Source of the DNA: an uncultured Gammaproteobacteria bacterium
Lineage (GTDB): Bacteria > Patescibacteriota > Patescibacteriia > Magasanikbacterales > GWA2-37-8
DNA: 64,000 bases
Direction: 5' to 3'
Assembly: GCA_964478235.1 (NCBI GenBank)
Contig: CAYZGX010000004.1
Location: 4,320 to 68,319, forward strand
Part shown: one piece after another, positions 3,891 through 45,871 of the stretch
How positions within the stretch are numbered: position 1 is the first letter of the stretch
Layout of the letters: every line of letters starts with the position of its first letter
Translations under genes and position numbers: made by a program
Notes under the pieces: generated by a model
The model's database searches: none
Seen by the model: only the letters and a program-made list of their open reading frames with translations
What the model was told of the DNA's origin: nothing

Positions 3891-3919
3891 TTGACAAAAG
3901 CGATATCTATGGGTATACT
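3891..3919 (+). promoter_or_regulatory. near-consensus sigma70 promoter facing GC-rich islet 1
   Basis: TTGACA (3891-3896), 17 bp spacer, TATACT (3914-3919). Lies in the divergent region between smc (minus) and the 4053 ORF (plus). Confidence 0.5.
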
Positions 3920-3945
3920 GAAGCGTTGTTCTTTTTATTTCTCCC

Positions 3946-4027
3946 TATAGTACTCGGGGAAGAAGGCATTTGAAACGAGTTTCAAGAATCTTCTCCCCTG
4001 AGTACACCCACCCAGCCTATCTAGGGG
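3946..4027 (+). promoter_or_regulatory. structured leader: 16-bp imperfect inverted repeat hairpin plus a second short hairpin ahead of the RBS
   Basis: gtactcggggaagaag...cttctcccctgagtac (14 of 16 bp complementary) encloses the palindrome ttgaaacgagtttcaa. It is followed by cctatctaggggatagg and then GGAGGcacgaccATG. Confidence 0.4.
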
Positions 4028-4052
4028 ATAGGCATTTCGCGGAGGCACGACC

Positions 4053-4373
4053 ATGGCACGGATCGTTTTTCACGACTGCGGTATTCACGTTTCGCTCGAG
4101 ATCGCCGGTCAGAAGGGCAAGCGTGTGGAGGCGCTTCGCATCTTCGTCCAGGACGAGATCGACAAGCACTACCGCTTGGGCGACATCAGCCCGGCGGAAA
4201 AGAAGGCCCTCCTCGAGGAGGCCAAGACGCACTCCAAGCTCTTCGACACGGAGGAGGAGATGATGAACGCGCTCATCGAGAGCCACCCGAAGCTCGCCAA
4301 CATCCTGAAGGCGGCGAGCGTGCTCGGATACAAGTCGGCCGTCCTCATCGCGATGCCCCACGCCGAGGCTTAG
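4053..4373 (+). CDS. hypothetical small protein (GC-rich islet 1, paralog A)
   Basis: 106 aa. GGAGG lies 7 nt upstream of the ATG. Natural amino-acid composition (K, E, I rich) in contrast to the antisense frame. Shares an ...THSKLFDTEEEMMNALIES... motif with the next ORF. Confidence 0.55.
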   Translation: MARIVFHDCGIHVSLEIAGQKGKRVEALRIFVQDEIDKHYRLGDISPAEKKALLEEAKTHSKLFDTEEEMMNALIESHPKLANILKAASVLGYKSAVLIAMPHAEA

Positions 4374-4403
4374 CCCCCACCACCACGAACCGGAGCACCT
4401 GAG

Positions 4404-4787
4404 ATGCTGGAAATTTGCGAAACGTGCAAGCTGCACCTTGAGCTCACTCTGCCAACTGGCGGAGTCGACCGACATCCACTGCTCGCCACGCGCGGAGCGG
4501 TGCACCGTCGAATCGACGAGCTTGAGCGGCACGAAATCATCACGGTCGTGGAGGCGACCCTGATGCGCGAAGAAGCGGACACCCACCCCAGTCTGTTCGA
4601 CGACATGAACGAACTCTGCGAATCGTTCGGTCTGAACGAGCAGACCGTGGAGGGGATCAAGTCCATCGTCCGAAACAGCCATCGCCATCTCGGCAACGCG
4701 CCCGTCGTCATCGACTACAGCCCCGGACGCCGACTCCACATCGCCGTCGAGCGCCACCGCACCAGCAGGGTCGCCGAGGCCACCTAG
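4404..4787 (+). CDS. hypothetical small protein (GC-rich islet 1, paralog B)
   Basis: 127 aa, tandem to the previous ORF with a 30-nt gap. Its motif ...THPSLFDDMNELCESFG... resembles the one in paralog A. No recognisable domain. Confidence 0.5.
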   Translation: MLEICETCKLHLELTLPTGGVDRHPLLATRGAVHRRIDELERHEIITVVEATLMREEADTHPSLFDDMNELCESFGLNEQTVEGIKSIVRNSHRHLGNAPVVIDYSPGRRLHIAVERHRTSRVAEAT

Positions 4788-4866
4788 GGAGAAACTACAC
4801 GGTCACTAACCCGGCAAGCCCGACCACCTTGCCCGGCACTCACCCGACCGCTTCGGGTGACACACT

Positions 4867-4900
4867 AAAACAGCTTTTTTGAAGGCTGTTTTTTGTTTTT
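4867..4900 (+). terminator. intrinsic terminator closing islet 1
   Basis: aaaacagc / gctgtttt stem followed by a T-run (ttttttgttttt). Confidence 0.55.
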
Positions 4901-4962
4901 AGACTTTAATAAAATTTTATCTCTCCCCTGCTAAACTGTAGTTTGACGACCCGCTCGTCACT

Positions 4963-5349
4963 TTGTATACTAACCATACTATGTATATGGTAACCAAAAA
5001 AGAAAATCCAACGAATCAGGATATCCTGACCGCTATTAACGACTTTGCGAATTATGTCCAAGGGCGTTTTGACGATATCGAGGCTCGGTTTGAAGGCGTT
5101 GACGCTCGGTTTGATGGTATCGGCGGTCGATTTGAAGGTATTGAACAGCGTCTTGATAGAGTCGAAGCGACGATGGTTACCAAAGACTATCTCGATGAAA
5201 AGCTTGCTGACTTGCGCGGAGATTTAGTGGTTTTGGTTCGCAAAGAAGATGCCAAGCTCACCAAACTTATTGACCTCTTGTCCGATAAAAAAGTCCTAAG
5301 CTCCAAAGAACGCGCGGAGCTCACTCACATGGAGCCTTTTACTCGTTAA
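4963..5349 (+). CDS. hypothetical coiled-coil protein with heptad (21-bp) repeats
   Basis: 128 aa. Contains RFDDIEA RFEGVDA RFDGIGG RFEGIEQ RLDRVEA. An alternative start at 4981 is possible. Confidence 0.55.
   Translation: MYTNHTMYMVTKKENPTNQDILTAINDFANYVQGRFDDIEARFEGVDARFDGIGGRFEGIEQRLDRVEATMVTKDYLDEKLADLRGDLVVLVRKEDAKLTKLIDLLSDKKVLSSKERAELTHMEPFTR
5065..5169 (+). repeat. 5 x 21-bp tandem periodic repeat inside the CDS
   Basis: cgttttgacgatatcgaggct / cggtttgaaggcgttgacgct / cggtttgatggtatcggcggt / cgatttgaaggtattgaacag / cgtcttgatagagtcgaagcg. Confidence 0.8.
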
Positions 5350-5363
5350 TACCTGCGCTTATT

Positions 5364-5392
5364 AAAACAGCTCCACTCGGGCTGTTTTTTAT
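5364..5392 (+). terminator. intrinsic terminator
   Basis: aaaacagc...gctgtttttt, a hairpin followed by a T-run. Confidence 0.55.
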
Positions 5393-5408
5393 TATCGACC
5401 CGCCATTC

Positions 5409-5437
5409 TTGACAATCCCCGCTTTTCTCGGTACTAT
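5409..5437 (+). promoter_or_regulatory. sigma70 promoter of nrnA
   Basis: TTGACA (5409-5414), 17 bp spacer, TACTAT (5432-5437), 12 nt before the ATG. Confidence 0.5.
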
Positions 5438-5449
5438 GTCTCGTTCCCT

Positions 5450-6406
5450 ATGCAACATACTGCTTATCAAATTCACCGCCATATTCAGCAAGCGAAAAAA
5501 GTGATGATCGTCCCCCACCAGAATCCTGATGGCGATGCGATTGGCGCCGCTACCGCTTTTCATGAATACCTCACCACGCTCGGCAAAGAGATTATTATTT
5601 TTTGCGCCACTTCAGTGACTGAGAAATTATTGTTTGTTCCGAATAGCACCAAAGTTGTTACTGATCCAACTGTCTTCAACGACCACACTATTGATACGAT
5701 CGTCGTCCTTGATTCTGGGGATTTGCGCTACGCTGGCATCGCTGAACTCGTCAAAAACCATCCAGCGACGATTATCAACATCGACCACCACGCCACTAAC
5801 GAACACTATGGCACGTACAATCTGGTTTTGACGTCAGCCGCTTCTACCACCGAAATCTTGTATCATTTTTTCCGTCACAACGGTGTGCGTGTCAACCAAC
5901 ACATGGCCACCTCTCTTTTGACCGGCCTCACCACCGACACCGGCAACTTTAGTAACGGCGCCACCTCTATGTCAGCTTTTTCTGTCGGTGGTGAGCTTAT
6001 CCGCTCGGGTGGTAATTACAACCTGATTAACAATGCCACTCTGCGCAATAAATCTGTCGACACCTTGAAGCTCTGGGGCAAAGTATTGTCGCGCCTCGAA
6101 AAAGATGAACGCCTCGGCCTTACCCACACCTATCTCACCCAAGCAGATATGCGTGAATACAATGTACCGGATAATGAAAGTGAAGGGATTGCTAATTTCT
6201 TGAATAATTTAGAAAATACCAATATCGCTTTGATTCTCAAAGAAACACCTGACGGTAAAATCAAAGGTAGTTTCCGCACCACCAAAGATACTATCGATGT
6301 CTCAGCCATGGCGAAAGCCCTTGGTGGCGGTGGTCACAAAAAAGCTGCCGGCTTTGCTTGCGAAGGCACTATTGAAAGCGTGCTTGCTCGCATCTTGGCA
6401 ATGTAA
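5450..6406 (+). CDS. nrnA: DHH/DHHA1 phosphoesterase, NrnA-type oligoribonuclease/pAp phosphatase
   Basis: Motifs HQNPDGDAIGA, DHH (IDHH) and the DHHA1 GGGGHKKAAGF. Confidence 0.85.
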   Translation: MQHTAYQIHRHIQQAKKVMIVPHQNPDGDAIGAATAFHEYLTTLGKEIIIFCATSVTEKLLFVPNSTKVVTDPTVFNDHTIDTIVVLDSGDLRYAGIAELVKNHPATIINIDHHATNEHYGTYNLVLTSAASTTEILYHFFRHNGVRVNQHMATSLLTGLTTDTGNFSNGATSMSAFSVGGELIRSGGNYNLINNATLRNKSVDTLKLWGKVLSRLEKDERLGLTHTYLTQADMREYNVPDNESEGIANFLNNLENTNIALILKETPDGKIKGSFRTTKDTIDVSAMAKALGGGGHKKAAGFACEGTIESVLARILAM

Positions 6407-6447
6407 ATTGACAACCTCGTGTAGCTTGTATATTATTAGAAAACCTT

Positions 6448-6519
6448 TCCGGGATAGTTGAGAGGTACAACGCCACGCTGTTAACGTGGATATCCTTGGT
6501 TCGATTCCAAGTCCCGGAG
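6448..6519 (+). tRNA. tRNA-Asn (anticodon GTT)
   Basis: Acceptor TCCGGGA/TCCCGGA, D-arm GTTG/CAAC, anticodon arm CCACG-CTGTTAA-CGTGG, T-arm CTTGG-TTCGATT-CCAAG. CCA is not encoded. Folded by hand. Confidence 0.85.
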
Positions 6520-6524
6520 CTAAT

Positions 6525-6565
6525 ACATAAGACGACCTATAAAGGTCGTCTTATGTATTATTTTT
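6525..6565 (+). terminator. intrinsic terminator after tRNA-Asn
   Basis: ataagacgacc / ggtcgtcttat hairpin followed by a T-run. Confidence 0.7.
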
Positions 6566-6728
6566 GAGTTTGGAACCGAACGAAAGACGCGCCAGAAAGA
6601 AGTCAGGTTTTTCTCTTATTAATTGACGCCCCACCCTATAGGGAGTACAGTACCTATCCAGCAGTTATTCAACTGTACAACCCATTGGTTCGTGCACATT
6701 CCCATGGTCTACAGATAGCACTATCCAT

Positions 6729-6806
6729 ATGACAGAAGAAAAACCAGCTGCCCCAGCTCCAGCACCGACTGTTCCAGAGAAGAAGGATGAACCGAAGAAA
6801 GTCTAG
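6729..6806 (+). CDS. possible 25-aa peptide (MTEEKPAAPAPAPTVPEKKDEPKKV) in a stand-alone mini transcription unit
   Basis: A candidate promoter TTGACG (6611) ...TACAGT sits upstream. The ORF is followed by the terminator cagacctcaccagggtctgttttt. No SD is evident. Confidence 0.25.
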   Translation: MTEEKPAAPAPAPTVPEKKDEPKKV

Positions 6807-6825
6807 TTTCCGCCAGATCGCCAAA

Positions 6826-6855
6826 CAGACCTCACCAGGGTCTGTTTTTGTTTTG
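6826..6855 (+). terminator. intrinsic terminator
   Basis: cagaccc-type stem (cagacc tcacca gggtctg) followed by tttttgtttt. Confidence 0.55.
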
Positions 6856-6921
6856 AGCGGTCGCTTGACACCCCTTCTTTGGCCGTGGGATACTAAACCG
6901 TACTAACATAACCTATTATGT

Positions 6922-7272
6922 ATGCCTGAAACACGACGCCGCGAAACTTCATCAGAAGATTTCCCAACACTCGCTATCACCAAAGGCTTGGTATCTGAAC
7001 AAGCCCAAAGTCTCAGTCGCGACCTCATTTTGGCTATCCAAAAAACTGCCGCTGAGTTTCGTGTCGCTGAAGATTCCGAGAAAAGCCAAGCTTCTTTCCG
7101 CAAGGCCTACGAAGTTCTCCAAAAATTACCAGACATTGATTTTGGCACTTTGTCCGCTATCGACTGTGGTGTTAGTGAACGTGATTTTACTATCTTCAAA
7201 AAACTTCTCCTCCGTCGCTTGGAGCATGGCAACATCGCTACTCTTGGCGCTATTGAATCGCTCGACGAATAA
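6922..7272 (+). CDS. hypothetical protein, apparently co-transcribed with clpP
   Basis: 116 aa, no recognisable domain. A candidate promoter TTGACA (6862) +17 GATACT lies upstream. The gene ends 14 nt before clpP. Confidence 0.5.
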   Translation: MPETRRRETSSEDFPTLAITKGLVSEQAQSLSRDLILAIQKTAAEFRVAEDSEKSQASFRKAYEVLQKLPDIDFGTLSAIDCGVSERDFTIFKKLLLRRLEHGNIATLGAIESLDE

Positions 7273-7286
7273 TCTAACCTTACCCT

Positions 7287-7898
7287 ATGAACAAACCAGC
7301 TCCGGTGACCTCTTTGTATTCCAACTATCTCATCCCGACAGTTATTGAAAAAACGAATATGGGTGAGCGCGCCTACGATATCTATTCGCGCCTGCTCCAA
7401 GACAGAATTATTTTCCTTGGCAGTGAAATTGATGACAACGTCGCAAACGTGATTATCGCCCAACTCCTCTTCCTTGAAAACCAAAGCCCAGAAAAAGATA
7501 TTAAATTGTATATTAATTCTCCAGGCGGATCGGTGACTGCTGGCCTCGCTATCTACGACACCATGCAACATATCAAAGCTGATGTCAGCACTATCTGTGT
7601 TGGCTTGGCGGCGAGTATGGCCGCGGTACTTCTCTCGGCTGGCAAAAAAGGTAAACGCTTCGCCTTGCCGAATAGTGAAATTATGATCCACCAAGTCATG
7701 GGTGGTATGGAGGGCCAAGCAAGCGACATCAAAATCCGCGCTGAGCGGATGCTTCGGATGAAAGAGCGTCTTAACAAGATTCTCGCCGACACCACCGGCA
7801 AAGATATTAAAGCCGTGGAAAAAGACACTGACCGCGACAACTTTATGCTCCCAACTGAGGCTCTCAAATACGGCCTAATCGATAAAGTAATCGACTAA
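7287..7898 (+). CDS. clpP: ATP-dependent Clp protease proteolytic subunit
   Basis: Classic ClpP motifs [21 protein letters not shown]...[14 protein letters not shown]...MIHQ. Confidence 0.93.
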
Positions 7899-7907
7899 AA
7901 CACACGC

Positions 7908-7950
7908 TCACAGCCTACCCGCCCTGCCCTGGGGCGGGTTTGTTTTATTT
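7908..7950 (+). terminator. intrinsic terminator after clpP
   Basis: cccgccc tgccctg gggcggg followed by tttgttttatttt. Confidence 0.65.
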
Positions 7951-7993
7951 TGGCTAATATAAGCCATTTTATCTCTTTTTCAGCTATACGGGC

Positions 7994-8022
7994 TTGACAA
8001 CAGGAGCTATCTGTGCTATACT
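7994..8022 (+). promoter_or_regulatory. near-perfect sigma70 promoter with extended -10
   Basis: TTGACA (7994-7999), 17 bp spacer, tgcTATACT (8014-8022). Confidence 0.6.
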
Positions 8023-8027
8023 TGACC

Positions 8028-8367
8028 GTTACCTGCTAAACACAGGTTTCCAGTACCAGATTTGGACGCACCGTCGAGACTATTCACACGGATCTCCCTG
8101 AAGTACTGTTTACAACCGACTATACCCTAACACTCCGGATGCAGTTTGAAAATGGATTTGGGGAAATGCTTGTTTCTCGGCTCCGTGCTGACGAAATAAG
8201 TATCTCCCCGCGTCCACGACAAGCATGGAGATGTGTTATTGGGTAGACTGGCTTCGCGCTGGGCTCTACTTCTGTAACACATCTTCTTGGGTGCGGTTTC
8301 GGTCACTTCTGTGACCACAAATGCAAAACTCCCTCGTACCAGCAATGGTGCGAGGGAGATTTTTTTT
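8028..8367 (+). ncRNA. candidate structured small RNA of about 340 nt (family unassigned)
   Basis: Runs from a consensus promoter to a strong terminator with no ORF longer than 16 codons. Hand-found hairpins: acctg-ctaaaca-caggt, tatctcc...ggagat, gatgtgtta...taacacatc (9 bp) and ggtcac-ttct-gtgacc. Confidence 0.4.
8329..8367 (+). terminator. strong intrinsic terminator (ctccctcg-N14-cgagggag followed by T8)
   Basis: An 8-bp GC-rich stem followed by attttttttcg. Its reverse complement could also close the minus-strand gene ending at 8376. Confidence 0.7.
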
Positions 8368-8375
8368 CGTTTGGT

Positions 8376-10355
8376 TTATTGTCCGGCTGGAGCGAGAGCA
8401 CCAGCAGATGTTGAAGACACCGTCCCAGCTGATGGAGCACAGGTGGTTTGCCCAGCACAACTACCCTTTGGTACGCCGACCATACAGATGCGTGGCAGTG
8501 GTCGGTAGTAACTATCAAATGGTAATTCAATCGTCTCCCCTTCTGGAGTGGTGCGCGTATAGGTGAAGGTGGCATTAGCTCCGCGGAAGGCGTTCTGACA
8601 TTTGGTTTGTCCTGGCTCAAGCGAGCCGTCGTCGATATAGAACGTTTGCTCGTCGCCGGCTGGAATCCATTTTTTCACAATCGGGTGCGTATAGGAACCA
8701 CTGCGACCATCGGGCTTGCCCCACAAGCTGAAGGCAAGTTCTTGTTTTTTATAATCAATCGTCGTGAGTAGAAGAAGGTAATTGCCGGTGTCGTTGGTAA
8801 ATTTAAAATCTAGGTGTGGCTCATAGAGCGTCGCGTCGGTGCCGGGGTTGCCGTTCACCGGATCAGCATAATAGCTCACCACGAGGGAATGATTGCGTCG
8901 CTCGGTAATCGGCATACCGGAGTTCATCGCCATACGGAAAAGGGTTGTCCCCACTTGGCACATCCCGCCACCAATTTCTGGTTTAATCTCCCGGCCTTTA
9001 ATCACCATCTCTGGCAAGAAACCATTTTCAGCGGTAAACGGGCCAGCTGATTTATTAGCAGAAAAAACTTCACCTGGTTTAATAAGCGTACCGTTGAGGC
9101 GCTTCACCGCGAGAGCAATATTTTTAATACGATTAGTGTGACTATCTTTGAAACTAGAATAGCCCGTGCCGATAAGATCGGTAATGCCGAGTTCGTTAAT
9201 GTCAGCTGTTTTGACCGTTGGCTCGACAATTTCTACCACCACACCCACTGTTCGGATGTCTGACGGTGTATTGTAGTTGCGAGCGGAAAAAGCCAAATTA
9301 ACTTGCTTGGCTGTTTCCGAAGCGTTTACTTTGAGACCGGTTTGGCTCCCTTGAAACTCTTCTACTTTGCCATCTTTGATAGCAAATTTTGCTTCTTTAG
9401 CTTCAGTATCAATTGCTGGAGAAACGGTTTCGTGGATAAAATCTCCAAGCATTGTTTCATCAAGCACTAAGACAGGCAGAGCATCAGCATCTTTTACCAC
9501 CGTTAACCAGCTCGCCATATTAGTGCGTGAAATCACCCACTCTTCGCGAGCGTTAGTTTTGTTGTTAACATAATTCAAGCTGAGCGGACCAGCGCTCAAC
9601 ACCAACGGAACATTGCCCACCACTTTTGCCACATCTTGTTTGGTAATGGTTGGTGTCGTGGTTTCAAGAGCGATACTAAGCGGACTAAATGATAAAGCTC
9701 CGAGTGTCTGCTCTATTTGTAGACGAAGTGCTTGGTAGTTAAATGATTGACCATCTTTTTCTGGAACAACGGTCGCTCGTTCGTCTCTACTGACCACAAT
9801 TCGAGCATCGGCTCCCCTGTCTTCAAACGGCGCCAAAATACCTTTCACCATATCTTCCAAGCCGTTTTCTTGAACTTCAACTGGCACGATCACGGTGTGC
9901 GTATTAAAACGAAGACGGAGTGGGGATAAAAATCTAGTGAGCACACTACCGGTGCGTCCTTGGTTGAGAGCTTCGCGAGCGGTAGATTCACTATCGAGCT
10001 GAACAATTTCACTACTCGTGTCACCAGCAACAACAGTGTTAATCACGACCGATTGCGCTTGGCCTTTGAGGTCGGTAAACGAGAGGGTGACACCTTCTTT
10101 GGCATAACGGTTGTTGGCGGTTTCAATGAGTGCAACCACTTCGTTTCGAGATAAACCACCCAGATCAAGCAGGCCGACTTTGACCCCTGGAAAGACTTTG
10201 CTGTCGTAGGACATGTTATAGAGCGCAATTCCCCCAATAGCACCTCCCACAAGCACCACCAGAACCCCGAGAACGCCTAATACCACCCGAAAACGACGTG
10301 GGGGTGGGTTAATGGTGTTTTGTACGGCTGCGGCCGTTTGTGACACGAAATCCAT
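8376..10355 (-). CDS. VanW-family membrane-anchored protein
   Basis: 659 aa. N-terminal TM segment (VLGVLGVLVVLVGGAIGGIAL). The C-terminal region RRNHSLVVSYYADPVNGNPGTDATLYEPHLDFKFTNDTGNYLLL is typical of VanW domains. Confidence 0.7.
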   Translation of the reverse strand: MDFVSQTAAAVQNTINPPPRRFRVVLGVLGVLVVLVGGAIGGIALYNMSYDSKVFPGVKVGLLDLGGLSRNEVVALIETANNRYAKEGVTLSFTDLKGQAQSVVINTVVAGDTSSEIVQLDSESTAREALNQGRTGSVLTRFLSPLRLRFNTHTVIVPVEVQENGLEDMVKGILAPFEDRGADARIVVSRDERATVVPEKDGQSFNYQALRLQIEQTLGALSFSPLSIALETTTPTITKQDVAKVVGNVPLVLSAGPLSLNYVNNKTNAREEWVISRTNMASWLTVVKDADALPVLVLDETMLGDFIHETVSPAIDTEAKEAKFAIKDGKVEEFQGSQTGLKVNASETAKQVNLAFSARNYNTPSDIRTVGVVVEIVEPTVKTADINELGITDLIGTGYSSFKDSHTNRIKNIALAVKRLNGTLIKPGEVFSANKSAGPFTAENGFLPEMVIKGREIKPEIGGGMCQVGTTLFRMAMNSGMPITERRNHSLVVSYYADPVNGNPGTDATLYEPHLDFKFTNDTGNYLLLLTTIDYKKQELAFSLWGKPDGRSGSYTHPIVKKWIPAGDEQTFYIDDGSLEPGQTKCQNAFRGANATFTYTRTTPEGETIELPFDSYYRPLPRICMVGVPKGSCAGQTTCAPSAGTVSSTSAGALAPAGQ

Positions 10356-10361
10356 AGGCGA

Positions 10362-10796
10362 CTAATCCTCAATAACAATAATAGGAATACTACTGGTAAC
10401 AATCGCCTTTGGCAAGTAAATAGCCAAGACGCCATTTCGGTATTCTGATCGCCCCATATCGGCTTTAACATCTACTGGAAGAACGATGGTGCGGGAAAAA
10501 GTTCCCCAATAGCATTCGGTGGTAAAATATTGTGATGCTTTGGGTACTGGCGACAAACGACGACCGCGAATGGTGAGAAAATCGTTGTGGAGATGAAGCT
10601 CAATATCTTCTGGTTTGGTACCGGCCATGGTGGCAACAATAACCAGCTCCTCTGGTGTTTCAGAAACATCCACCGACAACTGGCCTTCTTCATGTTCAGC
10701 GAGACTGCGCTCACCAGCTTGGCGAGCAAGCCAAATAAGCTCATCCGGAGGGCGGATTGGAGCGTTTTTAAAAGGAATAGGATTACTCATGGACAT
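10362..10796 (-). CDS. Hsp20/alpha-crystallin family small heat-shock protein
   Basis: 144 aa with the alpha-crystallin core (LSVDVSETPEELVIVATMAGTKPEDIELHLHNDFLTIRGRR...GVLAIYLPK). The promoter carries tgcTATACT. Confidence 0.85.
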   Translation of the reverse strand: MSMSNPIPFKNAPIRPPDELIWLARQAGERSLAEHEEGQLSVDVSETPEELVIVATMAGTKPEDIELHLHNDFLTIRGRRLSPVPKASQYFTTECYWGTFSRTIVLPVDVKADMGRSEYRNGVLAIYLPKAIVTSSIPIIVIED

Positions 10797-10898: not shown

Positions 10899-10920
10899 GG
10901 TTATGCTTTATTTTGAAGAG

Positions 10921-11270: not shown

Positions 11271-11444
11271 CTAGAACGGCGGATCGTCTTTCTCAGGCTC
11301 TTCCGGGGGCGGGGCGGGCTTTTCCTCCTTCTTCATCTTGGGGACGAATCCCCGACACCCGATGTGCCCCAGGGAACCGTAGTAGCCCTGACCACAGAAC
11401 GAGCACGAGCGGTAGCGCAGTTCGTTATCTCGCGAACACGACAT
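11271..11444 (-). CDS. hypothetical 57-aa Cys-containing protein (GC-rich islet 2)
   Basis: MSCSRDNELRYRSCSFCGQGYYGSLGHIGCRGFVPKMKKEEKPAPPPEEPEKDDPPF. GGAGGTG lies 5 nt upstream. A promoter TTGACT, 17 bp, TAGTAT is present on the minus strand. The terminator hairpin aaaaacag...ctgttttt sits at 11168-11200. Confidence 0.5.
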   Translation of the reverse strand: MSCSRDNELRYRSCSFCGQGYYGSLGHIGCRGFVPKMKKEEKPAPPPEEPEKDDPPF

Positions 11445-12535: not shown

Positions 12536-12595
12536 TATATTGAATGTGAAAAAAAAGATTCAAATGCCAGAACAACATCGTACGACATATAAAAA

Positions 12596-12625
12596 CAAGA
12601 CGCCCGCCGGATGAAATCCGGACGG
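12596..12625 (-). terminator. intrinsic terminator (minus strand) closing the 12802-13161 gene after a structured 3' region of about 180 nt
   Basis: Minus-strand reading gcccgtccggatttcatccggcgggc followed by gtcttgtttttat. Confidence 0.55.
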
Positions 12626-12801
12626 GCGAGGTGGAAGCGCTGGATCTTCGAACCCGAGTGGGTGTTTAGATCTGCGCCTCTGGCGGGGAGCCTGCTTTGC
12701 GCACGAGCGTGCGCTAGGGGCATCTCCCAAATGCCTAGGGTGGACCGGGGCGGTCGTAGCTAGGCTAAATTGACGGGTAGTACGCACGCTAGAGCAAGGC
12801 T

Positions 12802-13161
12802 CTAGTCGTCGCTATCGTCTTCAGAATCGTCGGCGTCGCCGTCGTCTGAATCCGAGTCTTCGGTATTGCTGGGGTCGTCCTCAGCTTCGTCAGAACTGCA
12901 GTCGTAGCTGGTGCACTGGTCACCGAGCCGATTGTCACGTTCGATTTTTTCGTGGGCTTCGCGCTTGCTTTGCACGTTATTTACATAGCCATACGAAGTA
13001 TCACAATCGCGACAAAGAATCTCATAACTACGAATCTCTGGCCCGTCATCATCGCCGGGAAGCAAATCGTAGATAATCCTTTCGAGCCCGCTCATTGGGA
13101 TGTACTTCAGGTAATACCAGTTACCCATGACACACTCCTCGTGTGAGTTGGCCTGCGACAT
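12802..13161 (-). CDS. hypothetical acidic Cys-containing protein
   Basis: 119 aa with CxxC...CxxxxC spacing (CRDC, CTSYDC) and a poly-acidic tail DSDSDDGDADDSEDDSDD. An alternative start at 13128 has a GAGGAG SD. Confidence 0.5.
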   Translation of the reverse strand: MSQANSHEECVMGNWYYLKYIPMSGLERIIYDLLPGDDDGPEIRSYEILCRDCDTSYGYVNNVQSKREAHEKIERDNRLGDQCTSYDCSSDEAEDDPSNTEDSDSDDGDADDSEDDSDD

Positions 13162-13224
13162 GCGGGCTAACTAAAAAGGATACTAGCAAAAGTATCCCGA
13201 AAAGTCAAGGTAATTGGGCTGTTT

Positions 13225-24081: not shown

Positions 24082-24082
24082 A

Positions 24083-30860: not shown

Positions 30861-30889
30861 TTGACAAAACGCCTGTGCTATGGTATATA
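30861..30889 (+). promoter_or_regulatory. consensus sigma70 promoter with extended -10 facing GC-rich islet 4
   Basis: TTGACA (30861-30866), 17 bp spacer, tggTATATA (30881-30889). Confidence 0.55.
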
Positions 30890-31146: not shown

Positions 31147-32022
31147 ATGCGCAGCATGTATCTGAAGGGGCTCCTCGGAGCCATCACCCTTTCTCTCGCG
31201 GTCGCTTGCGGCCCCGGGACGCCCGGCAACCCGGACGGCAACGACATCGGCAACGATGGCGGAGCTGTCTCGGAGAAGGTCGCTGTCAAGAACGTCCAGA
31301 TCGTCGATCTGCAGAAGAACCAGGCCACCTTCAACTTTGAGGTTGTGGGCCAGCCCGTGAGCGTCACGGGTACTTGTAAGACGGTCGGCACCACCGACTG
31401 GCACCAGGAAGGGTACGCTGTAAAGATCGGAGGAGGACGGTTCTCCTACACGGCGGGTCTCAACCCCCGCCTTCTGCCCGACACGGCCTACGAATTCGTC
31501 GCGACGGCCATTGACACCGACGGCGCCACGAGCGAGGTTACGATCTCGTTCACGACGCCCAAGGATGTTCCGGTGGAAGATCCGATGTGGACGTATGCCA
31601 AGGCGGTGATTCAGGGCAAGTACAATGTGGCACGTGAAGACGTGAACGAGCTGGTTGACCCCAACCACATTCGTCTCTCAACCACCTCAACGACGAAGTG
31701 CCCGACCGGCAAGAAGCTCTCGGGCCTCGGCTGGGAGGACTCTATCTGTTTCGACCCGGTGACCCTCACCGGCCACCGCCAGATCGACAATGATCGGATC
31801 GACATCACCTTCGAGATGTGCAACGTCTCGGCGGTGAACGAGAACTTCCCCCAGTTCGCCGAGATCACCAACGCCTGGTGCCAGACGCATGTCTGCCCGG
31901 CCGAGTGTCTCGACCAGTGGGGGCAGCCTCGTAGCGCCCAACTCATCATGCGCAGCACTGAGCTGTTCATGGGCGTAACCACCAACGGAACGAATCTGAA
32001 GGTCGAGAACTTCAACAACTAA
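31147..32022 (+). CDS. hypothetical secreted lipoprotein (GC-rich islet 4)
   Basis: MRSMYLKGLLGAITLSLAVAC, a lipobox-like signal peptide. GGGGAGG lies 7 nt upstream. An upstream ATG at 31078 is possible. Confidence 0.55.
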   Translation: MRSMYLKGLLGAITLSLAVACGPGTPGNPDGNDIGNDGGAVSEKVAVKNVQIVDLQKNQATFNFEVVGQPVSVTGTCKTVGTTDWHQEGYAVKIGGGRFSYTAGLNPRLLPDTAYEFVATAIDTDGATSEVTISFTTPKDVPVEDPMWTYAKAVIQGKYNVAREDVNELVDPNHIRLSTTSTTKCPTGKKLSGLGWEDSICFDPVTLTGHRQIDNDRIDITFEMCNVSAVNENFPQFAEITNAWCQTHVCPAECLDQWGQPRSAQLIMRSTELFMGVTTNGTNLKVENFNN

Positions 32023-32058: not shown

Positions 32059-32098
32059 GCGCCGGACCTAACGGGATCAAACCCAATAGGTCCGGCGC
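32059..32098 (+). repeat. perfect 11-bp inverted repeat hairpin (gcgccggacct-N18-aggtccggcgc)
   Basis: Read directly from the sequence. Lies between the islet 4 ORF and the shared terminator. Confidence 0.7.
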
Positions 32099-32101
32099 AC
32101 A

Positions 32102-32136
32102 CAAAAAACCTGTACAGATATTCTGTACAGGTTTTT
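32102..32136. terminator. bidirectional intrinsic terminator (A6-aacctgtacag-atatt-ctgtacaggtt-T6)
   Basis: An 11-bp stem flanked by an A-run and a T-run. Serves the convergent islet 4 ORF and the giant minus-strand gene. Confidence 0.75.
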
Positions 32137-32158
32137 TCGTTTGAGAGATTTCTCCTAG

Positions 32159-40042: not shown

Positions 40043-40657
40043 TTAAGGGCGTGGCGATGTTTTGGCACTCGAGCTAGCATAGGCCGCGGCGGCCATAGCC
40101 AACAATTCTTTATCACTTAGACTTTTAACTACTGCTTCATCAAGACCACCGGCAATAAGGAGTGACCGCACCTGCGCTGGATCAGATAACACCGAGCGAA
40201 TATCTCCTGTTTCAGAAACATCTATCATTTGGGGCTCAACGAGAGTTGAGGTGGCACTAATCGACAAATTACCTTCTCCAGATACAATTGGATTGTCGCA
40301 TTGTTGTCCAGCTGGGCAGTTTGGATTTTGTCCTTTTTCAACTTCCTGCTTATCACTCACACCATCAGAGTCAGTATCTTTCAAATACGGACTGGTCTGG
40401 TATACATATAATTCATCAAAATCATTGAGGCCATCAAAATCAGTATCACGAAAACGAAGCGCTTCTGGCGAATTAACTTCGTCTTTCAAACTTCCTGGAA
40501 CAGTGTTCGTTAGGGCAAATGGCGCATAGAGACGATTGCGGATTTGAAGCGCCCCAAGAGCCACGCTAATAAGCGCAAAAATGAGCAGTAAAGCTACGCC
40601 GAGCTTCTGCTCATGAGAAAACCGTGGCGGCAACGTTTCATTGTCCGTACCGTCCAT
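40043..40657 (-). CDS. membrane-anchored protein with thrombospondin-type-3-like Ca-binding repeats
   Basis: N-terminal TM helix, then DTDFDGLNDFDE / DTDSDGVSD repeats. Stop is 3 nt before the giant gene start. Confidence 0.6.
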   Translation of the reverse strand: MDGTDNETLPPRFSHEQKLGVALLLIFALISVALGALQIRNRLYAPFALTNTVPGSLKDEVNSPEALRFRDTDFDGLNDFDELYVYQTSPYLKDTDSDGVSDKQEVEKGQNPNCPAGQQCDNPIVSGEGNLSISATSTLVEPQMIDVSETGDIRSVLSDPAQVRSLLIAGGLDEAVVKSLSDKELLAMAAAAYASSSAKTSPRP

Positions 40658-42694: not shown

Positions 42695-43306
42695 TTAGAG
42701 AGAAATAATTGTTTCACCCTGACGAATAATCGTCAAAGTGCCGTCAGACTGTACTCGTACTATAGTGGTTGGCGGACGTTTCGGCAAGACGCCACGAGCG
42801 AGAATATAATCGGGCTGTACGGCGCGTCCTTGAAACATCGCTTCAACGGCCTGACTATCATACATATCACCGGCGTCAGAGACGTTGCCTGAAGTGGCGA
42901 CTAACGGCTTGTTCATTATTTCGGTGAGCGACACCAAAAAAGGATCGTTCGTCACTCTGACAGCAACCGTACCGTCTTTAGCCACCACCCCCGAAGCAAG
43001 CGCCGGCTGAGCAACATTATTATATTCCCCCACCACCGTGACTGGTCCTGGCCAATAAGTCTTCGCAATTTTTTCCAAGGTATCATTCCAGATAAAATAT
43101 TTTTTGGCCATGGCGATTGTTGGCACCACCACGAGGAGTGGTTTGTCTGATGGTCGGCCTTTGATAGCAAAAACAGCATCTACAGCCGATTGGTTGACGG
43201 CGTCACAACCCAGGCCATACGATGTTTCGGTGGGAACAATCACTGTTTTGCCGTTCAAAAGCTCGACAATGAGCGCTGCGGTGGTACATTCAGTTAACAC
43301 TTTCAT
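42695..43306 (-). CDS. tsaC: L-threonylcarbamoyladenylate synthase (YrdC/Sua5 family)
   Basis: VIVPTETSYGLGCDA...LLVVVP, the YrdC fold signature. Confidence 0.85.
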   Translation of the reverse strand: MKVLTECTTAALIVELLNGKTVIVPTETSYGLGCDAVNQSAVDAVFAIKGRPSDKPLLVVVPTIAMAKKYFIWNDTLEKIAKTYWPGPVTVVGEYNNVAQPALASGVVAKDGTVAVRVTNDPFLVSLTEIMNKPLVATSGNVSDAGDMYDSQAVEAMFQGRAVQPDYILARGVLPKRPPTTIVRVQSDGTLTIIRQGETIISL

Positions 43307-43307
43307 A

Positions 43308-44378
43308 TTAGCGTTTAATCCATTTCAAATAGGCTTCGGCGAGCGGAAGCAATTCACCTTCCAAAACATTTTCTGGATCGGTTGCTTTGTATTCGGTGCG
43401 GTGATCGTTGACCATGTGATAAGGGTGCAATACATACGAGCGAATCTGATTCCCCCATTCGGCCGATTTATATTCCCCGCGTAATTCTTGGCGCTCTTTG
43501 GCTCGCTGTTCTTCGGCCAAGCGGTGGAGTTTGGCTTTCAAAATTTTCATTGCCATATCTTTGTTTTGCGCTTGCGAGCGTTCATTCTGGCATTGCACGG
43601 TGATACCTGTTGGAATATGCACGATGCGCACAGCTGAATACGTGGTGTTTACACTCTGACCACCTTTTCCGCCAGACATAAAAGTATCGATGCGTAAATC
43701 TTCTGCTTTGATAGTTACTTCTACTGAATCATCAACTTCTGGCAAGACTTCTACCAGAGCGAACGAAGTGTGACGCATTTTTTCAGCATCAAACGGTGAG
43801 ATGCGTACCAGTCGATGAACACCGTGTTCAGATTTTAAATAACCAAAAGCATATCGGCCGGTGACTTCAAAGGTTACTGATTTATAACCAGCTTCCGCCC
43901 CGCGCGATTCGTCAATAATTCTGGTTTTCCAACCTTGCTTTTCGGAAAAGCGTAAAATCATGCGTAGTAACATTTCACTCCAATCTTGCGCTTCGGTTCC
44001 CCCGCTCCCTGCATGAATCGCCACGATAGCATTGTTGACATCGTAGGGTCCGCTCAAGAGAAGAGAAAACTCATAGGCGGTAAATTGTTTTTCCAGCTCA
44101 GTAATTTGTAGGGCGAGATCGGGCGCGAGCGCCGGATCACTGGAAAGTTCTAACACATCTGTAACACTTTGCTCAAGCGCTTCCCATTTATCTACTTCTT
44201 GTTTAATCGCCTGATAATCTTGCGTCACCACCTGGGCGCGGTTGCGGTCATTCCAAAAAGAACCCTCATTCATCTCCACTCCCAGCTGCTCCATCTTTTT
44301 TTTGAGACTAGCAAGATTGAGGAGTCTGGTTGTCTCCTCAATTTTTTTAGTGAGCTCTTGCAGTCGTTCCACTGACAT
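43308..44378 (-). CDS. prfB: peptide chain release factor 2 (single uninterrupted ORF)
   Basis: SPF tripeptide (VRISPFDAE) and GGQ (SGGKGGQSVNTT). No internal in-frame UGA frameshift site. Confidence 0.9.
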   Translation of the reverse strand: MSVERLQELTKKIEETTRLLNLASLKKKMEQLGVEMNEGSFWNDRNRAQVVTQDYQAIKQEVDKWEALEQSVTDVLELSSDPALAPDLALQITELEKQFTAYEFSLLLSGPYDVNNAIVAIHAGSGGTEAQDWSEMLLRMILRFSEKQGWKTRIIDESRGAEAGYKSVTFEVTGRYAFGYLKSEHGVHRLVRISPFDAEKMRHTSFALVEVLPEVDDSVEVTIKAEDLRIDTFMSGGKGGQSVNTTYSAVRIVHIPTGITVQCQNERSQAQNKDMAMKILKAKLHRLAEEQRAKERQELRGEYKSAEWGNQIRSYVLHPYHMVNDHRTEYKATDPENVLEGELLPLAEAYLKWIKR

Positions 44379-44381
44379 AGG

Positions 44382-44873
44382 TTAGAAAATTTTTCCAAAA
44401 CTAACAGCGATAAGAAGCGTCACGAGCCCCGAGCCAAGAACAGCTGAGGTGAGATAGATCCACGAATGACGGAAGGGTACGCCGAGCAAAAAAGCGAGCA
44501 TGGCGCCGGTAAAAATACCACTTCCAGGCAACGGCGAAACGACAAAAAATACCAGACCGAGCATGCCATATTTTTCGTATTTTTGAAAACCGTCTTGAGC
44601 TTTTTTTAGATTATTCGCCCATTTTTTTCCAAAAAAAGTTCCAGAATTTTTTTCTACCCAGGCATGAAATCTGTCAGCGTGGTACAGCAAAAGAAGTACT
44701 GGACCAATATTGCCAAGCATAGTCAAAAAATACACTTCCCAAACTGGCATGCGATACACCAAAATCCCAAGCGGAATGGCGGCTCGTTGCTCAAGAACCG
44801 GAATCATAGCAACGAGAAAAACAGCTAATTCGTTTGGAAAACCACTAAGGTAGAGGGCGATTTGATGAAGCAT
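44382..44873 (-). CDS. small multidrug-export-like (COG2426) membrane protein
   Basis: 4 TM helices. The start was chosen at MLHQIAL; the ORF track extends to 44912. Confidence 0.45.
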   Translation of the reverse strand: MLHQIALYLSGFPNELAVFLVAMIPVLEQRAAIPLGILVYRMPVWEVYFLTMLGNIGPVLLLLYHADRFHAWVEKNSGTFFGKKWANNLKKAQDGFQKYEKYGMLGLVFFVVSPLPGSGIFTGAMLAFLLGVPFRHSWIYLTSAVLGSGLVTLLIAVSFGKIF

Positions 44874-44926
44874 AGTGTCAGATAGTGTACAGTATGCCCT
44901 CACTCTACGCAACTCGCATCAAACCC

Positions 44927-44955
44927 TTGACAAAAAGCCCTTTTTCTAGTAGCAT
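44927..44955 (+). promoter_or_regulatory. sigma70 promoter facing islet 5 ORF
   Basis: cTTGACAaaaa (44927-44932), 17 bp spacer, TAGCAT (44950-44955). Confidence 0.5.
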
Positions 44956-44991
44956 GCTCAAGCTTCACCAACCCCGGCCTAGGAGGGCCCC

Positions 44992-45177
44992 ATGTCGAGC
45001 CAGAGCTCAGCAAACGGACACGATGGCGGTACGGACGACGAAGTCAACCTCTCACTCGAGAGCCCGGAGGTCATCTCCGACCATACGAGCAAGAAGGGTG
45101 TCGAATACAACCCCTTCGGCGGGGTCAACATCGACCTCACCAGCTTCCCCGAGTGGATGGAGACCAAGGGCTTCTAG
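44992..45177 (+). CDS. hypothetical 61-aa acidic protein (GC-rich islet 5a)
   Basis: GGAGGG lies 5 nt upstream. MSSQSSANGHDGGTDDEVNLSLESPEVISDHTSKKGVEYNPFGGVNIDLTSFPEWMETKGF. Followed by two hairpins. Confidence 0.5.
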   Translation: MSSQSSANGHDGGTDDEVNLSLESPEVISDHTSKKGVEYNPFGGVNIDLTSFPEWMETKGF

Positions 45178-45223
45178 CCCCCCCCACTTGAAGCCAACAA
45201 CTCGGCTTCCGTTGGGCCACATA

Positions 45224-45286
45224 AAGCCACCCCAACGTCACAATCTGTTGATACCATCGACCGATTGTGACGGGTGGCTTTTTTGT
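45224..45286 (+). terminator. long intrinsic terminator hairpin (aagccacccc...gtcacaatc...gattgtgac gggtggctt followed by T6)
   Basis: Nested inverted repeats followed by ttttttg. Confidence 0.6.
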
Positions 45287-45320
45287 TTCTTGAGATAAAG
45301 AAAAAATAAAGTCCGACCCA

Positions 45321-45349
45321 TTGACAAAAACGTTATTTTTAGCTATAAC
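45321..45349 (+). promoter_or_regulatory. sigma70 promoter for islet 5b ORF
   Basis: TTGACAaaaa (45321-45326), 17 bp spacer, TATAAC (45344-45349). Confidence 0.5.
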
Positions 45350-45430
45350 AGAGGCATCTTGAGACGCTCCAACCAGCGCTCACGAATCCGCGCCATGCCG
45401 GCTCGGAAACAACAAAGCGAGGATAGCTCT

Positions 45431-45871
45431 ATGACAATCGAGACTCCCCCACCAGAATCATTTGGATTTGATGGTGGAATGGACGATGCCGGACATGCTC
45501 CGTATATCGACAAGCTTTTGCGCGAAACCCTCACTGAAGTGGTACTATTATATGCCAAAGAGGAACGGGTGACACCCGAGTATGCCGATCGTGTGCGCCT
45601 GGAGTTTTTGCGCTTTCTGTCATTAGCTCGTTTTGACGACGGCCTCCTGTTGCCGCCCACTCCAGTGGAACGTTTCTGGAAACTGTTCGTCACAGCAATG
45701 CCTGCTCGCTATCAGGAGCTCAGCCAGACGCACTTTTTTGGGAGTACCCCTCCCTACCCGGTGCCTCAGGGTAGCCGTCCAGAATTGCTCAAACGCACCA
45801 AGCACACCCTTTGCAAGTACTACAAGCAGTACGACGCCGACATCTGGGGAATGACCGATGAGACCGATTAG
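45431..45871 (+). CDS. hypothetical protein (GC-rich islet 5b)
   Basis: The start was chosen at MTIETPP, with GAGGA 8 nt upstream. The ORF track begins at 45359. No recognisable domain. Confidence 0.5.
   Translation: MTIETPPPESFGFDGGMDDAGHAPYIDKLLRETLTEVVLLYAKEERVTPEYADRVRLEFLRFLSLARFDDGLLLPPTPVERFWKLFVTAMPARYQELSQTHFFGSTPPYPVPQGSRPELLKRTKHTLCKYYKQYDADIWGMTDETD

Follow-up and report, generated by a model that had tools for sequence, protein, structure and literature searches.

The 64-kb stretch of contig CAYZGX010000004.1 analysed here (hereafter the window; mean GC 0.467) belongs to a tiny-genome groundwater bacterium of Candidatus Magasanikbacteria, in the candidate phyla radiation (CPR)/Patescibacteria. 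Five short GC-rich transcription units, which we call islets, lie between its core genes and carry six small genes. We tentatively read them as long-resident, lineage-specific and fast-evolving cassettes of Magasanikbacteria, whose GC richness would be maintained in place, and not as recent imports. This reading starts from observed properties of the islets, namely their architecture, composition, synteny, recombination mosaics and direction of substitution.

The core genes of the window encode SMC, a DHH phosphoesterase, ClpP, VanW, an ABC ATPase, a VirB4/TraG-like ATPase, a 2626-aa surface protein, KsgA, Sua5, RF1, GroES/GroEL, a Wzy-like protein, YidC and NusA. A scan with KsgA, using one genome per GTDB species, returned almost exclusively metagenome-assembled genomes (MAGs) of Candidatus Magasanikbacteria; the nearest was GCA_964442985.1, with 93% amino-acid identity, and the next reached at most 62%. 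An actinobacterial host, which the first-pass annotation of the sequence had suggested as donor, has no basis, as the KsgA scan places the lineage in Candidatus Magasanikbacteria and not in Saccharibacteria.

Base composition and codon usage

The GC-rich patches that had been picked out by eye against an AT-richer background are borne out both by GC in 400-bp windows and by per-gene GC at third codon positions (GC3). In 400-bp windows, GC reaches 0.615-0.625 in the islet 1 region (4001-4800) and 0.58-0.62 in the islet 3 region (31001-32000). The islet 4 region (44800-45300) lies at 0.53-0.59 (0.53 over 44801-45400 in 400-bp windows) and the islet 5 region (45400-45950) at 0.53-0.57 (0.53-0.54 over 45401-46000 in 400-bp windows). 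The six islet genes were compared with 44 core open reading frames (ORFs) of the window. Their GC3 runs from 0.58 in islet 5 to 0.89 in islet 1a (Table 1), against 0.32-0.54 in the core ORFs, all of which except one are at or above 0.37; SmMDR and GroEL, which adjoin islets 4 and 5, have GC3 of 0.39-0.40. Untranslated region (UTR) segments within the islets have 56-70% GC.

Most of this excess sits at third positions, since islet GC1 is 0.52-0.68 and islet GC2 0.33-0.48, with core GC2 at about 0.30-0.48. Under the Muto-Osawa relationship, genomes with GC3 of 0.8-0.9 normally have GC1 of about 0.66-0.70 and GC2 of about 0.46-0.50. Amino-acid usage of the islet proteins is near that of the core (Ala 6.6%, Lys 5.1%), and the GC excess is essentially synonymous.

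The comparison of codon usage with core genes, a check proposed in the first-pass annotation, revealed that the islets are inverted relative to the core, with values of 0.97 against 0.20 for AAG, 0.94 against 0.38 for CAG, 0.85 against 0.30 for ATC, 0.91 against 0.27 for TTC and 0.50 against 0.06 for CCC (islets and core, respectively). An extreme of the genome's own high-expression bias was ruled out, because GroEL, GroES and NusA prefer A/T-ending codons; the G-ending share for Lys, Glu and Gln is 0.13-0.17 in these three genes and 0.61-0.96 in the islets. The composition and codon usage of the islets are a real, foreign-looking anomaly.

These foreign-style codons, opposite to those of GroEL, GroES and NusA, speak for the main rival explanation, in which hotspot gaps in a compact genome repeatedly capture or swap GC-rich genes from an unsampled, Shine-Dalgarno-using donor pool. 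The pool could consist of hosts, of GC-richer Patescibacteria or of their mobile elements, and the genes would land behind native promoters and slowly ameliorate, as moron-like units. We consider such capture possible but somewhat doubtful. The GC-rich UTRs and sharp boundaries of the islets favour it, and the native-like amino-acid composition of their proteins counts against it.

Promoters, ribosome-binding sites and terminators

The units follow one plan: a sigma-70 promoter and a leader of 35-290 nt are followed by a Shine-Dalgarno sequence and one or two small ORFs, and a GC-rich 3′ hairpin precedes the intrinsic terminator at the end. The leader is about 35 nt long in islet 4 and about 250-260 nt in islet 3, and leader structure was examined for islet 1 only. 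The near-consensus promoters annotated at 3891, 30861, 44927 and 45321 were confirmed at exactly these positions. The promoter motif TTGACAAAA occurs 7 times in the window, where 1.3 occurrences are expected, and five of the seven precede islet-type units. Near-consensus sigma-70 promoters are also found before native genes (at 6408, 7994, 754 on the minus strand, 4943 and 5409), and the promoter is therefore not islet-specific.

The sharpest contrast found concerns translation initiation. Strong GGAGG Shine-Dalgarno sequences, said to be missing from many core genes, are indeed confined almost entirely to the islets: GGAGG precedes none of the 44 core genes, any Shine-Dalgarno 4-mer precedes only three, and 31 lack even a Shine-Dalgarno-like trimer, against GGAGG in four and a Shine-Dalgarno 4-mer in all six of the islet genes. 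A search of the 64-kb window for GGAGG-N4-10-RTG followed by an ORF of at least 40 codons gave seven sites, six of them in islet-type units (four islet gene starts, one site inside 1b and one in the candidate sixth unit described below); the last lies inside a core gene. Little or no leader appears to precede at least two native genes, with a promoter at 4943-4971 followed by ATG at 4981/4987 and a promoter at 5409-5437 followed by ATG at 5450. In relatives, GC-rich genes almost always carry GGAGG, GGAG or GAGG and the neighbouring core genes do not. In homologues of islet 5 the Shine-Dalgarno sequence and its position are kept across family-level divergence, which indicates that the motif is functional. 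Judged from these sequences, the strong Shine-Dalgarno of the islets is probably functional under any of the explanations considered here.

A strong Shine-Dalgarno where core genes have none would be expected of captured genes. It could also mark a separate expression class, in which selection on the message or on decoding would favour GC richness: the islets would combine Shine-Dalgarno-dependent initiation and GC-ending codons with structured UTRs and with stabilising hairpins at the 3′ end, and would be regulated or translated in another way than the AT-rich core genes. We regard this as quite unlikely. It is in keeping with the extent of the GC-rich domain, which coincides with the transcript body and takes in both the 3′ UTR and the proximal part of the 5′ UTR, and with a Shine-Dalgarno sequence that is nearly exclusive to the islets in the window and recurs on the GC-rich genes of relatives. 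The anti-Shine-Dalgarno motif was detected in only 48% of Parcubacteria 16S ribosomal RNAs (PMC9297842), which fits core genes without a Shine-Dalgarno sequence and likewise agrees with a separate class.

The UTRs of islet 1 provide further arguments for such a class. Its leader can, as predicted, sequester its own Shine-Dalgarno, and its 3′ UTR is invariant across lineages (98-100% identical in four). The leader is 82-95% conserved, and conservation falls to 62-72% in the 1a coding sequence. RNAalifold on four lineages gave 35 pairs of which only one is compensatory, so that the fold is to be taken as a prediction. The likely highly expressed core genes, which use the opposite codons, speak against selection on expression, as does the loss of GC in the window lineage described below. 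Nor did synonymous-codon shuffles detect selected mRNA structure beyond GC content, with z-scores of +0.2 to -1.2 in islets and controls alike and only 1b reaching -2.7.

A dedicated terminator for each patch, as first annotated, was recovered for islets 1 and 4. The terminator motif ACCTGTAC..GTACAGGT occurs only at islet 3 and, at position 45978, at islet 5, right after the stops of the convergent giant gene (the 2626-aa surface protein) and GroEL, and at these two islets the terminator is probably bidirectional and shared with the convergent core gene. Few gaps between core genes are permissive, and it is in these that the units lie. Among the five strong units, four run against the core genes on one or both sides, and islet 1 is co-directional with the downstream DHH gene. 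Islets 1, 3, 4 and 5 lie on the plus strand, whereas the core genes, with DHH and ClpP behind islet 1 among the exceptions, are mostly on the minus strand. Since the cumulative GC skew falls across the whole window, islets 1, 3, 4 and 5 are probably head-on to replication.

Homologues and conservation in relatives

The islet proteins have no recognisable domain, as had been stated: Pfam (in a set without PF27765) and NCBIfam gave nothing above threshold. Islets 1a, 3 and 5 were searched against 5.8 billion proteins (1b, 2 and 4 were not among the queries). In this database islet 3 retrieved no homologue except itself and islet 1a only two relatives, with 87% and 64% identity. For islet 5, a word-indexed search returned only its own 90% cluster, and an exhaustive search with a hidden Markov model found P0017 (4e-14), P0018 (1e-10) and about 12 remote proteins of 140-176 aa. 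The islet 5 profile matched at E-values of 1e-7 to 4e-4; two of the matched proteins (P0019 and P0021) carry the precomputed annotation PF27765, 'UCP032817-like'.

Remote relatives of islet 5 from the PF27765 family share 23-31% identity with it and are marked by a WH...HHxP motif and a Cys-rich C-terminal tail. Islet 5, P0007, P0017 and P0018 have W-K/V/I instead of W-H, lack the HH and end before the Cys tail. By sequence comparison, islet 5 appears to be a divergent UCP032817-like relative, the Magasanikbacteria copies of which appear to have lost the His motif and the tail. In P0019-P0030 the conserved domain of about 140 aa is followed by short Cys/Gly/Ser-rich tails, a layout reminiscent of peptide precursors built from leader and core, or of metal-binding tails.

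Islets 1a, 3 and 5 had lineage-restricted hits only in the 5.8 billion proteins, and these searches pointed to no GC-rich donor lineage. This weighs against a recent import, since donor-like GC3 should leave a recognisable donor, and it burdens repeated capture as well, because unameliorated GC3 together with undetectable donors demands that every donor lineage be unsampled. Islets 1 and 3 have no relatives among the viral contigs of IMG/VR, which also counts against capture; a phage origin was rejected on the grounds that neither an islet 1-family nor an islet 3 relative is present there. The ORF list contains no integrase or transposase beside the islets (no dedicated search of the flanks for repeats was made), which may also tell against capture. 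Islet 2 lies about 180 bp from a tRNA-Pro gene.

Sequences of relatives, given below by L numbers, place the same units at the same loci. A sister species with about 84-87% nucleotide identity to the window could be compared for islets 1a/1b, 4 and 5; no sister sequence is available for islets 2 and 3, and the contig of L002, the closest GTDB genome, ends inside the giant gene and gives no view of the islet 3 slot. L082 is colinear with window positions 42934-55821 and carries islets 4 and 5, and L087 is colinear with positions 1-11105 and carries 1a and 1b. Promoters, Shine-Dalgarno motifs and terminators are kept in the sister species. The first-pass annotation had taken syntenic orthologs of the same composition in all relatives as an argument against acquisition; islets 1a/1b, 4 and 5 were found at the same loci in the sister species, none of them being absent from its locus in these close relatives, and this argument largely applies. 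This synteny excludes a single recent import.

L094, with 63% (KsgA) and 77% (RF1) amino-acid identity to the window, extends the comparison further. Both L093 and L094 have a two-cassette layout in the SmMDR-GroEL gap, each unit with its own promoter and terminator: an acidic ORF of 50-60 aa, in which no similarity to islet 4 could be detected, and a homologue of islet 5 with 33% amino-acid identity. GC3 of the gap ORFs is 0.73-0.75 and 0.54-0.66, against 0.43-0.49 in one core comparison and 0.35-0.51 in the core genes at those loci. Synonymous sites are saturated between the window and L094, which excludes an old import that has not yet ameliorated; islet-type genes that are still GC3-rich at such distances are not the leftover of one old import. 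The islet 5 homologues, which share derived features and synteny across family-level divergence, are in addition hard to reconcile with repeated capture.

The same gap also receives other genes. In L003 and L012 it holds other small Shine-Dalgarno-led GC-rich ORFs, and in L058 an SDR gene (4987-5793, minus strand; GC3 0.74) lies in the slot of islets 4/5. Elsewhere, L053 carries an IS110-family transposase (4665-6074, minus strand; GC3 0.85 against 0.35 in the core) and L042 a 507-aa RCC1-repeat lipoprotein (4926-6449, plus strand; GC3 0.67). The GC-rich IS110 and SDR genes had no match in PLSDB. They make gene flow from GC-rich sources into the clade plausible, and this, with the SDR in the very slot of islets 4/5, is evidence on the side of capture. 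HGT (horizontal gene transfer) is reported to be common among Patescibacteria (PMC12455944), which also suits that explanation.

Between the giant gene and p27543 lies the islet 3 slot, where at least 17 relatives encode a GC-rich, Cys-rich lipoprotein in antiparallel orientation. A GC-rich gene was located there in L005, L006, L007, L009 (two genes), L010, L012, L055, L099, L101, L102, L103/L108 and L106, and GC peaks in L003, L017, L056, L109 and L110; the slot is without a gene in L095 and L107. Nearly all the slot proteins are lipoproteins of 100-280 aa with a lipobox, an Asp/Gly/Thr/Asn/Pro-rich linker and 6-12 cysteines, and their GC3 is 0.64-0.91 against a locus background GC of 0.37-0.50. 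The extreme case is L106, with a gene GC of 0.71 against 0.38. Architecture is shared among them; sequence likeness is weak, patchy and C-terminal, with the motifs GxCxVxC.D.W.TP in L006 and L101 and C.W.CG.PP.G in L005 and L099. The flanking core protein is 80% identical between L101 and L102, the lipoproteins of which are alike in the signal peptide only, as would be expected if such genes were exchanged. The recurrence of a Cys-rich lipoprotein in constant orientation in a single slot of at least 17 genomes is, in turn, difficult for the capture explanation.

The relatives also bear on an artefact of assembly or binning, in which foreign GC-rich fragments would have been spliced into a Magasanikbacteria contig. 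The sequence does stem from assembled metagenomes, and the label Gammaproteobacteria is wrong for some of the related MAGs. Identical junctions nevertheless recur in assemblies made independently in different projects (Logan runs, NCBI MAGs, JGI and ENA), with L001 carrying the islet 3 structure and L082-L092 carrying islets 1, 4 and 5. Promoter, Shine-Dalgarno, ORF and terminator are moreover intact and conserved, and islet 5 is under purifying selection. An artefact is hardly credible and is effectively refuted.

Divergence, recombination and substitution patterns

Between the window and the sister species, core genes have synonymous divergence (dS) of 0.55-0.96 and nonsynonymous to synonymous ratios (dN/dS) of 0.02-0.18. 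Islet 4 is 73% identical at the amino-acid level, with dS 0.27 and dN/dS 0.62, and islet 5 has dS 0.46 and dN/dS 0.13. Islet 1a of the window is 100% identical to L087 over 4100-4159 and 98% over 4160-4219, against 72% to L091. For islet 1b, L087 and L091 are 95-100% identical over most of the length, and 73-88% identical to the window over most of it. These discordant phylogenetic signals of 1a and 1b make islet 1 a recombination mosaic. The islet dS, lower than that of the core (0.27-0.46 against 0.55-0.96), and the fully identical stretch of 1a indicate transfer after the species split, and both are points for capture.

Within the sister species, islets 4 and 5 are 81-95% identical, whereas their flanks are almost all 97-100% (mostly 99-100%) identical, with the exception of one 84% patch inside SmMDR. 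At this patch (window positions 44681-44760), L082 and L092, otherwise 99-100% identical, differ by 16% over 80 bp, which suggests very short recombination tracts in the lineage.

The direction of substitution differs between the two lineages. At third positions of islet 1, the window lineage has 17 changes from strong (S, G or C) to weak (W, A or T) bases against one in the opposite direction. In islets 4/5, 23 sites are W in the window and S in both sister alleles, against 5 sites with the opposite pattern. Within the sister species, polarisation by the window gave 24 W>S against 17 S>W changes at all sites; at third positions the counts, though small, are 11 W>S and 6 S>W, even though W sites are some fourfold rarer there. 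Islet GC is thus declining in the window lineage and not in the sister species. Net S>W decay in the window lineage is what ameliorating captured genes would undergo.

Proposed origin and maintenance of the GC richness

The import from a high-GC host proposed in the first-pass annotation accounts for the foreign look of the anomaly and for the loss of GC in the window lineage; it fares badly with the missing donor and with the synteny in relatives. The alternative it offered, a class of small secreted or effector proteins under different compositional constraints, fits the data better than import, except that among the six islet genes a secretion signal was found in islet 3 only.

According to the reading that we favour, a fixation bias towards GC, local and effective along the entire transcript body, would generate or maintain the GC richness in place. 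Its most likely source would be GC-biased repair during frequent short-patch allelic recombination at the islet loci, and selection for GC-rich stable messages would push the same way. The Shine-Dalgarno would go with it for functional reasons: where the initiation region is structured and GC-rich one would be needed, and AT-rich core genes with little or no leader could do without. Islet 3 would encode a surface lipoprotein and the other islets a number of small cytoplasmic proteins, all of them presumably engaged in rapidly changing interactions with a host, phage or competitors. Maintenance in place is supported by the persistence of one gene type in one slot and by the homology of islet 5 with its shared derived features. 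Native-like amino acids, the lack of a donor, localised recombination and the apparent GC-favouring flux in the sister species support it as well.

A number of observations weigh against this reading. The window lineage is clearly losing GC (17 S>W against 1, and 23 against 5), as ameliorating foreign DNA would, and all substitution counts are small. The GC boundaries are very sharp, which a recombination bias with normal tract lengths hardly explains, and to our knowledge GC-biased conversion of this strength (+0.4 GC3) has not been described in bacteria. The synonymous shuffles lend no help from selected mRNA structure. The IS110 (L053) and the SDR (L058, same slot) show that real imports from GC-rich sources occur, and the slot lipoproteins of L106, L009 and L012 have high GC2 (0.56-0.65), as in high-GC organisms. 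Most slot lipoproteins cannot be aligned with one another, and their common descent is unproven.

A broader formulation, which we judge unlikely, is that two gene regimes coexist in one small Magasanikbacteria genome. The core regime would be AT-leaning, without Shine-Dalgarno and with little or no 5′ leader (as in the at least two genes examined). The second would span the clade with a limited number of fast-evolving proteins, both surface proteins and small ones, actively kept GC-rich, with canonical Shine-Dalgarno sequences and structured UTRs. It could be held by unusually strong GC-biased conversion at recombination hotspots or, alternatively, by a separately controlled translation class; in an extreme version of the latter, the messages would be adapted to the translation machinery of a GC-rich partner. 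If true, the conversion form would have no bacterial precedent on the scale of vertebrate hotspots.

Individual units and neighbouring genes

The coordinates of the units are collected in Table 1. The range of 57-314 aa first given for the islet proteins is shortened at its upper end, as the 314-aa ORF most likely starts at the ATG at 31147 and encodes 291 aa. The N-terminus of this islet 3 protein, MRSMYLKGLLGAITLSLAVAC, comprises a signal peptide and an AVAC lipobox with the Cys at residue 21, matched by hand to the pattern [LVI][ASTVI][GAS]C, by which the product is a predicted lipoprotein. Its AlphaFold2 (AF2) model, partial only, contains a beta-sandwich over residues 42-140 with a predicted local distance difference test (pLDDT) score of 63-80, and the C-terminal part is Cys-rich. 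The AF2 model of islet 5 is all-alpha (pLDDT 81), with no structural analogue in the PDB at E<1. The islet 2 protein has a Cys-rich N-terminal half and a Pro/Glu-rich tail.

Table 1. Coordinates of islet features and weaker members in the window
Feature	Position	Strand	Details
Islet 1 promoter	3891..3919	+	TTGACA-17-TATACT; 11/12 consensus match; kept in L087, L088, L090
Islet 1 5′ leader	3926..4052	+	two predicted hairpins; UCUCC (~3941-3945) pairs with GGAGG
Islet 1a gene	4053..4373	+	106 aa, no signal peptide; GC3 0.89; GGAGG
Islet 1b gene	4404..4787	+	127 aa; GC3 0.79; paralogue of 1a (BLASTP E=1e-6)
Islet 1 3′ UTR	4788..4892	+	two GC-rich hairpins; intrinsic terminator 4867-4892 (terminator scan)
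Islet 2 gene	11271..11444	-	57 aa; GC3 0.76; GGAGG; promoter-like site 11502-11474(-)
Islet 3 promoter	30861..30889	+	TTGACA-17-TATATA; leader AT-rich until ~31060
Islet 3 gene	31147..32022	+	291 aa; GC3 0.81; predicted lipoprotein
Islet 3 3′ end	32059..32137	+	12-bp GC hairpin 32059-32098; terminator 32102-32137; giant gene stop 32159
Islet 4 promoter	44927..44955	+	TTGACA-17-TAGCAT; kept in L082, L092, L093, L094
Islet 4 gene	44992..45177	+	61 aa, acidic, no signal peptide; GC3 0.84; GGAGG
Islet 4 3′ hairpin and own intrinsic terminator	45185..45287	+	kept in sister species, L093, L094
Islet 5 promoter	45321..45349	+	TTGACA-17-TATAAC
Islet 5 gene	45431..45871	+	146 aa, all-alpha; GC3 0.58 (0.71 in sister species)
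Islet 5 3′ end	45913..46004	+	hairpin 45913-45949; terminator 45975-46004; convergent GroEL stop 46034
Weak member	58835..59338	-	TTGACAAAA promoter 59338-59330; GGAGG; 142-aa membrane-anchored ORF from GTG 59263
Weak member beyond earlier list	12560..13208	-	promoter 13208-13180; ORF 12802-13161, GC3 0.61

The possible sixth patch of the first-pass annotation (58835-59263, minus strand) has the promoter and the GGAGG of an islet but a GC3 of only 0.56-0.57. The other weak member encodes a 119-aa acidic, zinc-ribbon-like protein. Between this ORF and a bidirectional terminator beside a tRNA-Ser gene lies a 240-nt non-coding segment (12560-12801, minus strand) of 58% GC (peak 0.61) with several hairpins, possibly a long 3′ UTR with structure or else an RNA not yet described. 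Rfam, run over the whole window with gathering and E-value thresholds, returned only tRNAs and sub-threshold noise and matched neither this segment nor the islet leaders. The adjacent tRNA gene (12415-12502, plus strand) is a type-II tRNA with a long variable arm, called tRNA-Ser with anticodon ACT (Rfam 54.5 bits). Its A34 is unusual for a bacterial tRNA-Ser, and a normal tRNA-Ser(GCT) is encoded at 19223-19310 on the minus strand.

A further GC peak, at 48151-48600 (minus strand) in the Wzy-like gene, was rejected as an islet because amino-acid composition drives its GC: overall GC is 0.57-0.60 with GC1 of 0.63-0.87 and GC3 of only 0.57-0.60, in Gly/Ala/Leu/Val/Arg-rich membrane segments. 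The Wzy-like protein has 427 aa in the window; in the sister species 399 aa are called, from a start that corresponds to an internal Met.

The giant gene next to islet 3 (32159-40039, minus strand) encodes the 2626-aa protein, with a CBM_4_9 domain, and is followed by a gene for a 204-aa protein with a bacterial TSP3 repeat (40043-40657, minus strand). This pair is kept beside KsgA across Magasanikbacteria, the giant protein with 29-81% identity. A cluster at 19360-27499 comprises a VirB4/TraG-type P-loop ATPase (22207-24081, minus strand) and several domain-less proteins, and may represent a type IV secretion or conjugation-like apparatus.

Gene content also differs near islet 1. Relative to the window (around 6560-6860), sister-species sequence L087 has about 1.6 kb extra between DHH and ClpP (12009-13679), encoding a DUF2975 gene and a 358-aa gene. 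A 128-aa coiled-coil gene (window 4963-5349) is present in L088 and absent from L087 and L089 (near window 4900-5380). The presence of small genes thus varies within the sister species. As for the relatives themselves, many public MAGs bear the title 'uncultured Gammaproteobacteria bacterium' although their gene content and synteny clearly mark them as Magasanikbacteria (L002, L004, L005, L008 and others; binchicken and SRP co-assemblies).

Significance

CPR/Patescibacteria genomes are among the smallest and most streamlined known. Their partner-interaction genes lack recognisable domains, and the partner interactions themselves are largely obscure. In the literature on CPR and Magasanikbacteria we found no description of a GC-rich-islet pattern; surveys of HGT in Patescibacteria exist (PMC12455944). 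High GC3, GGAGG, an own promoter and terminator and a conserved slot together constitute a signature for rapidly evolving small proteins and lipoproteins across the lineage, and proteins picked by it suggest themselves as candidate interaction factors. Should their GC richness be upheld locally, GC-biased fixation or message-level selection could be studied in bacteria with the help of the islets; under repeated capture, the hosts of Magasanikbacteria might be traced through the donors. The islets also call for caution in HGT detection, as islands called by composition only can be old syntenic residents.

Comparison with known systems

Phage morons are autonomous promoter-gene-terminator units between the genes of lambdoid prophages, often with a deviant base composition. 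Like them, the islets have their own promoter and terminator, sit between the genes of a conserved array, encode small accessory proteins and differ sharply from their neighbours in nucleotide composition. Unlike morons, they are chromosomal, among housekeeping genes (SMC, DHH, GroEL, RF1 and KsgA) and without prophage context, they are syntenic across species and several of them across a family, and they are GC-rich rather than AT-rich. Integron cassettes, for their part, lack promoters, whereas each islet unit has its own; no integrase was seen among the scanned ORFs of the window, and attC sites were not searched for specifically.

Compositionally atypical islets of recently transferred DNA are reportedly described by the amelioration model of Lawrence and Ochman. 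With such islets ours share deviant GC3 and codons, sharp boundaries and GC>AT decay in the window lineage. They differ in that no donor was found (1a, 3 and 5), no mobility genes stand beside them in the ORF list, the same loci are still GC3-rich in synonymous-saturated relatives and the sister species lacks the decaying flux.

GC-biased gene conversion at recombination hotspots is well known in mammals, birds and yeast, and is said to have been proposed for bacteria by Lassalle et al. in 2015. As at such hotspots, the local rise in GC3 coincides with signs of recombination (mosaics and excess local diversity), and small counts suggest a W>S flux despite AT-biased surroundings. The islets, in which a repair bias would be at work, are far stronger and tighter than the bacterial reports, with +0.3 to +0.45 GC3 confined to 0.3-1 kb.

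Bacteroidota have Shine-Dalgarno-poor genomes with few Shine-Dalgarno-led genes and a sequestered anti-Shine-Dalgarno. As in genomes of this type, the core genes of the window do without a Shine-Dalgarno sequence and a small special set keeps a strong one; here, however, the Shine-Dalgarno-led set is also compositionally distinct and fast-evolving.

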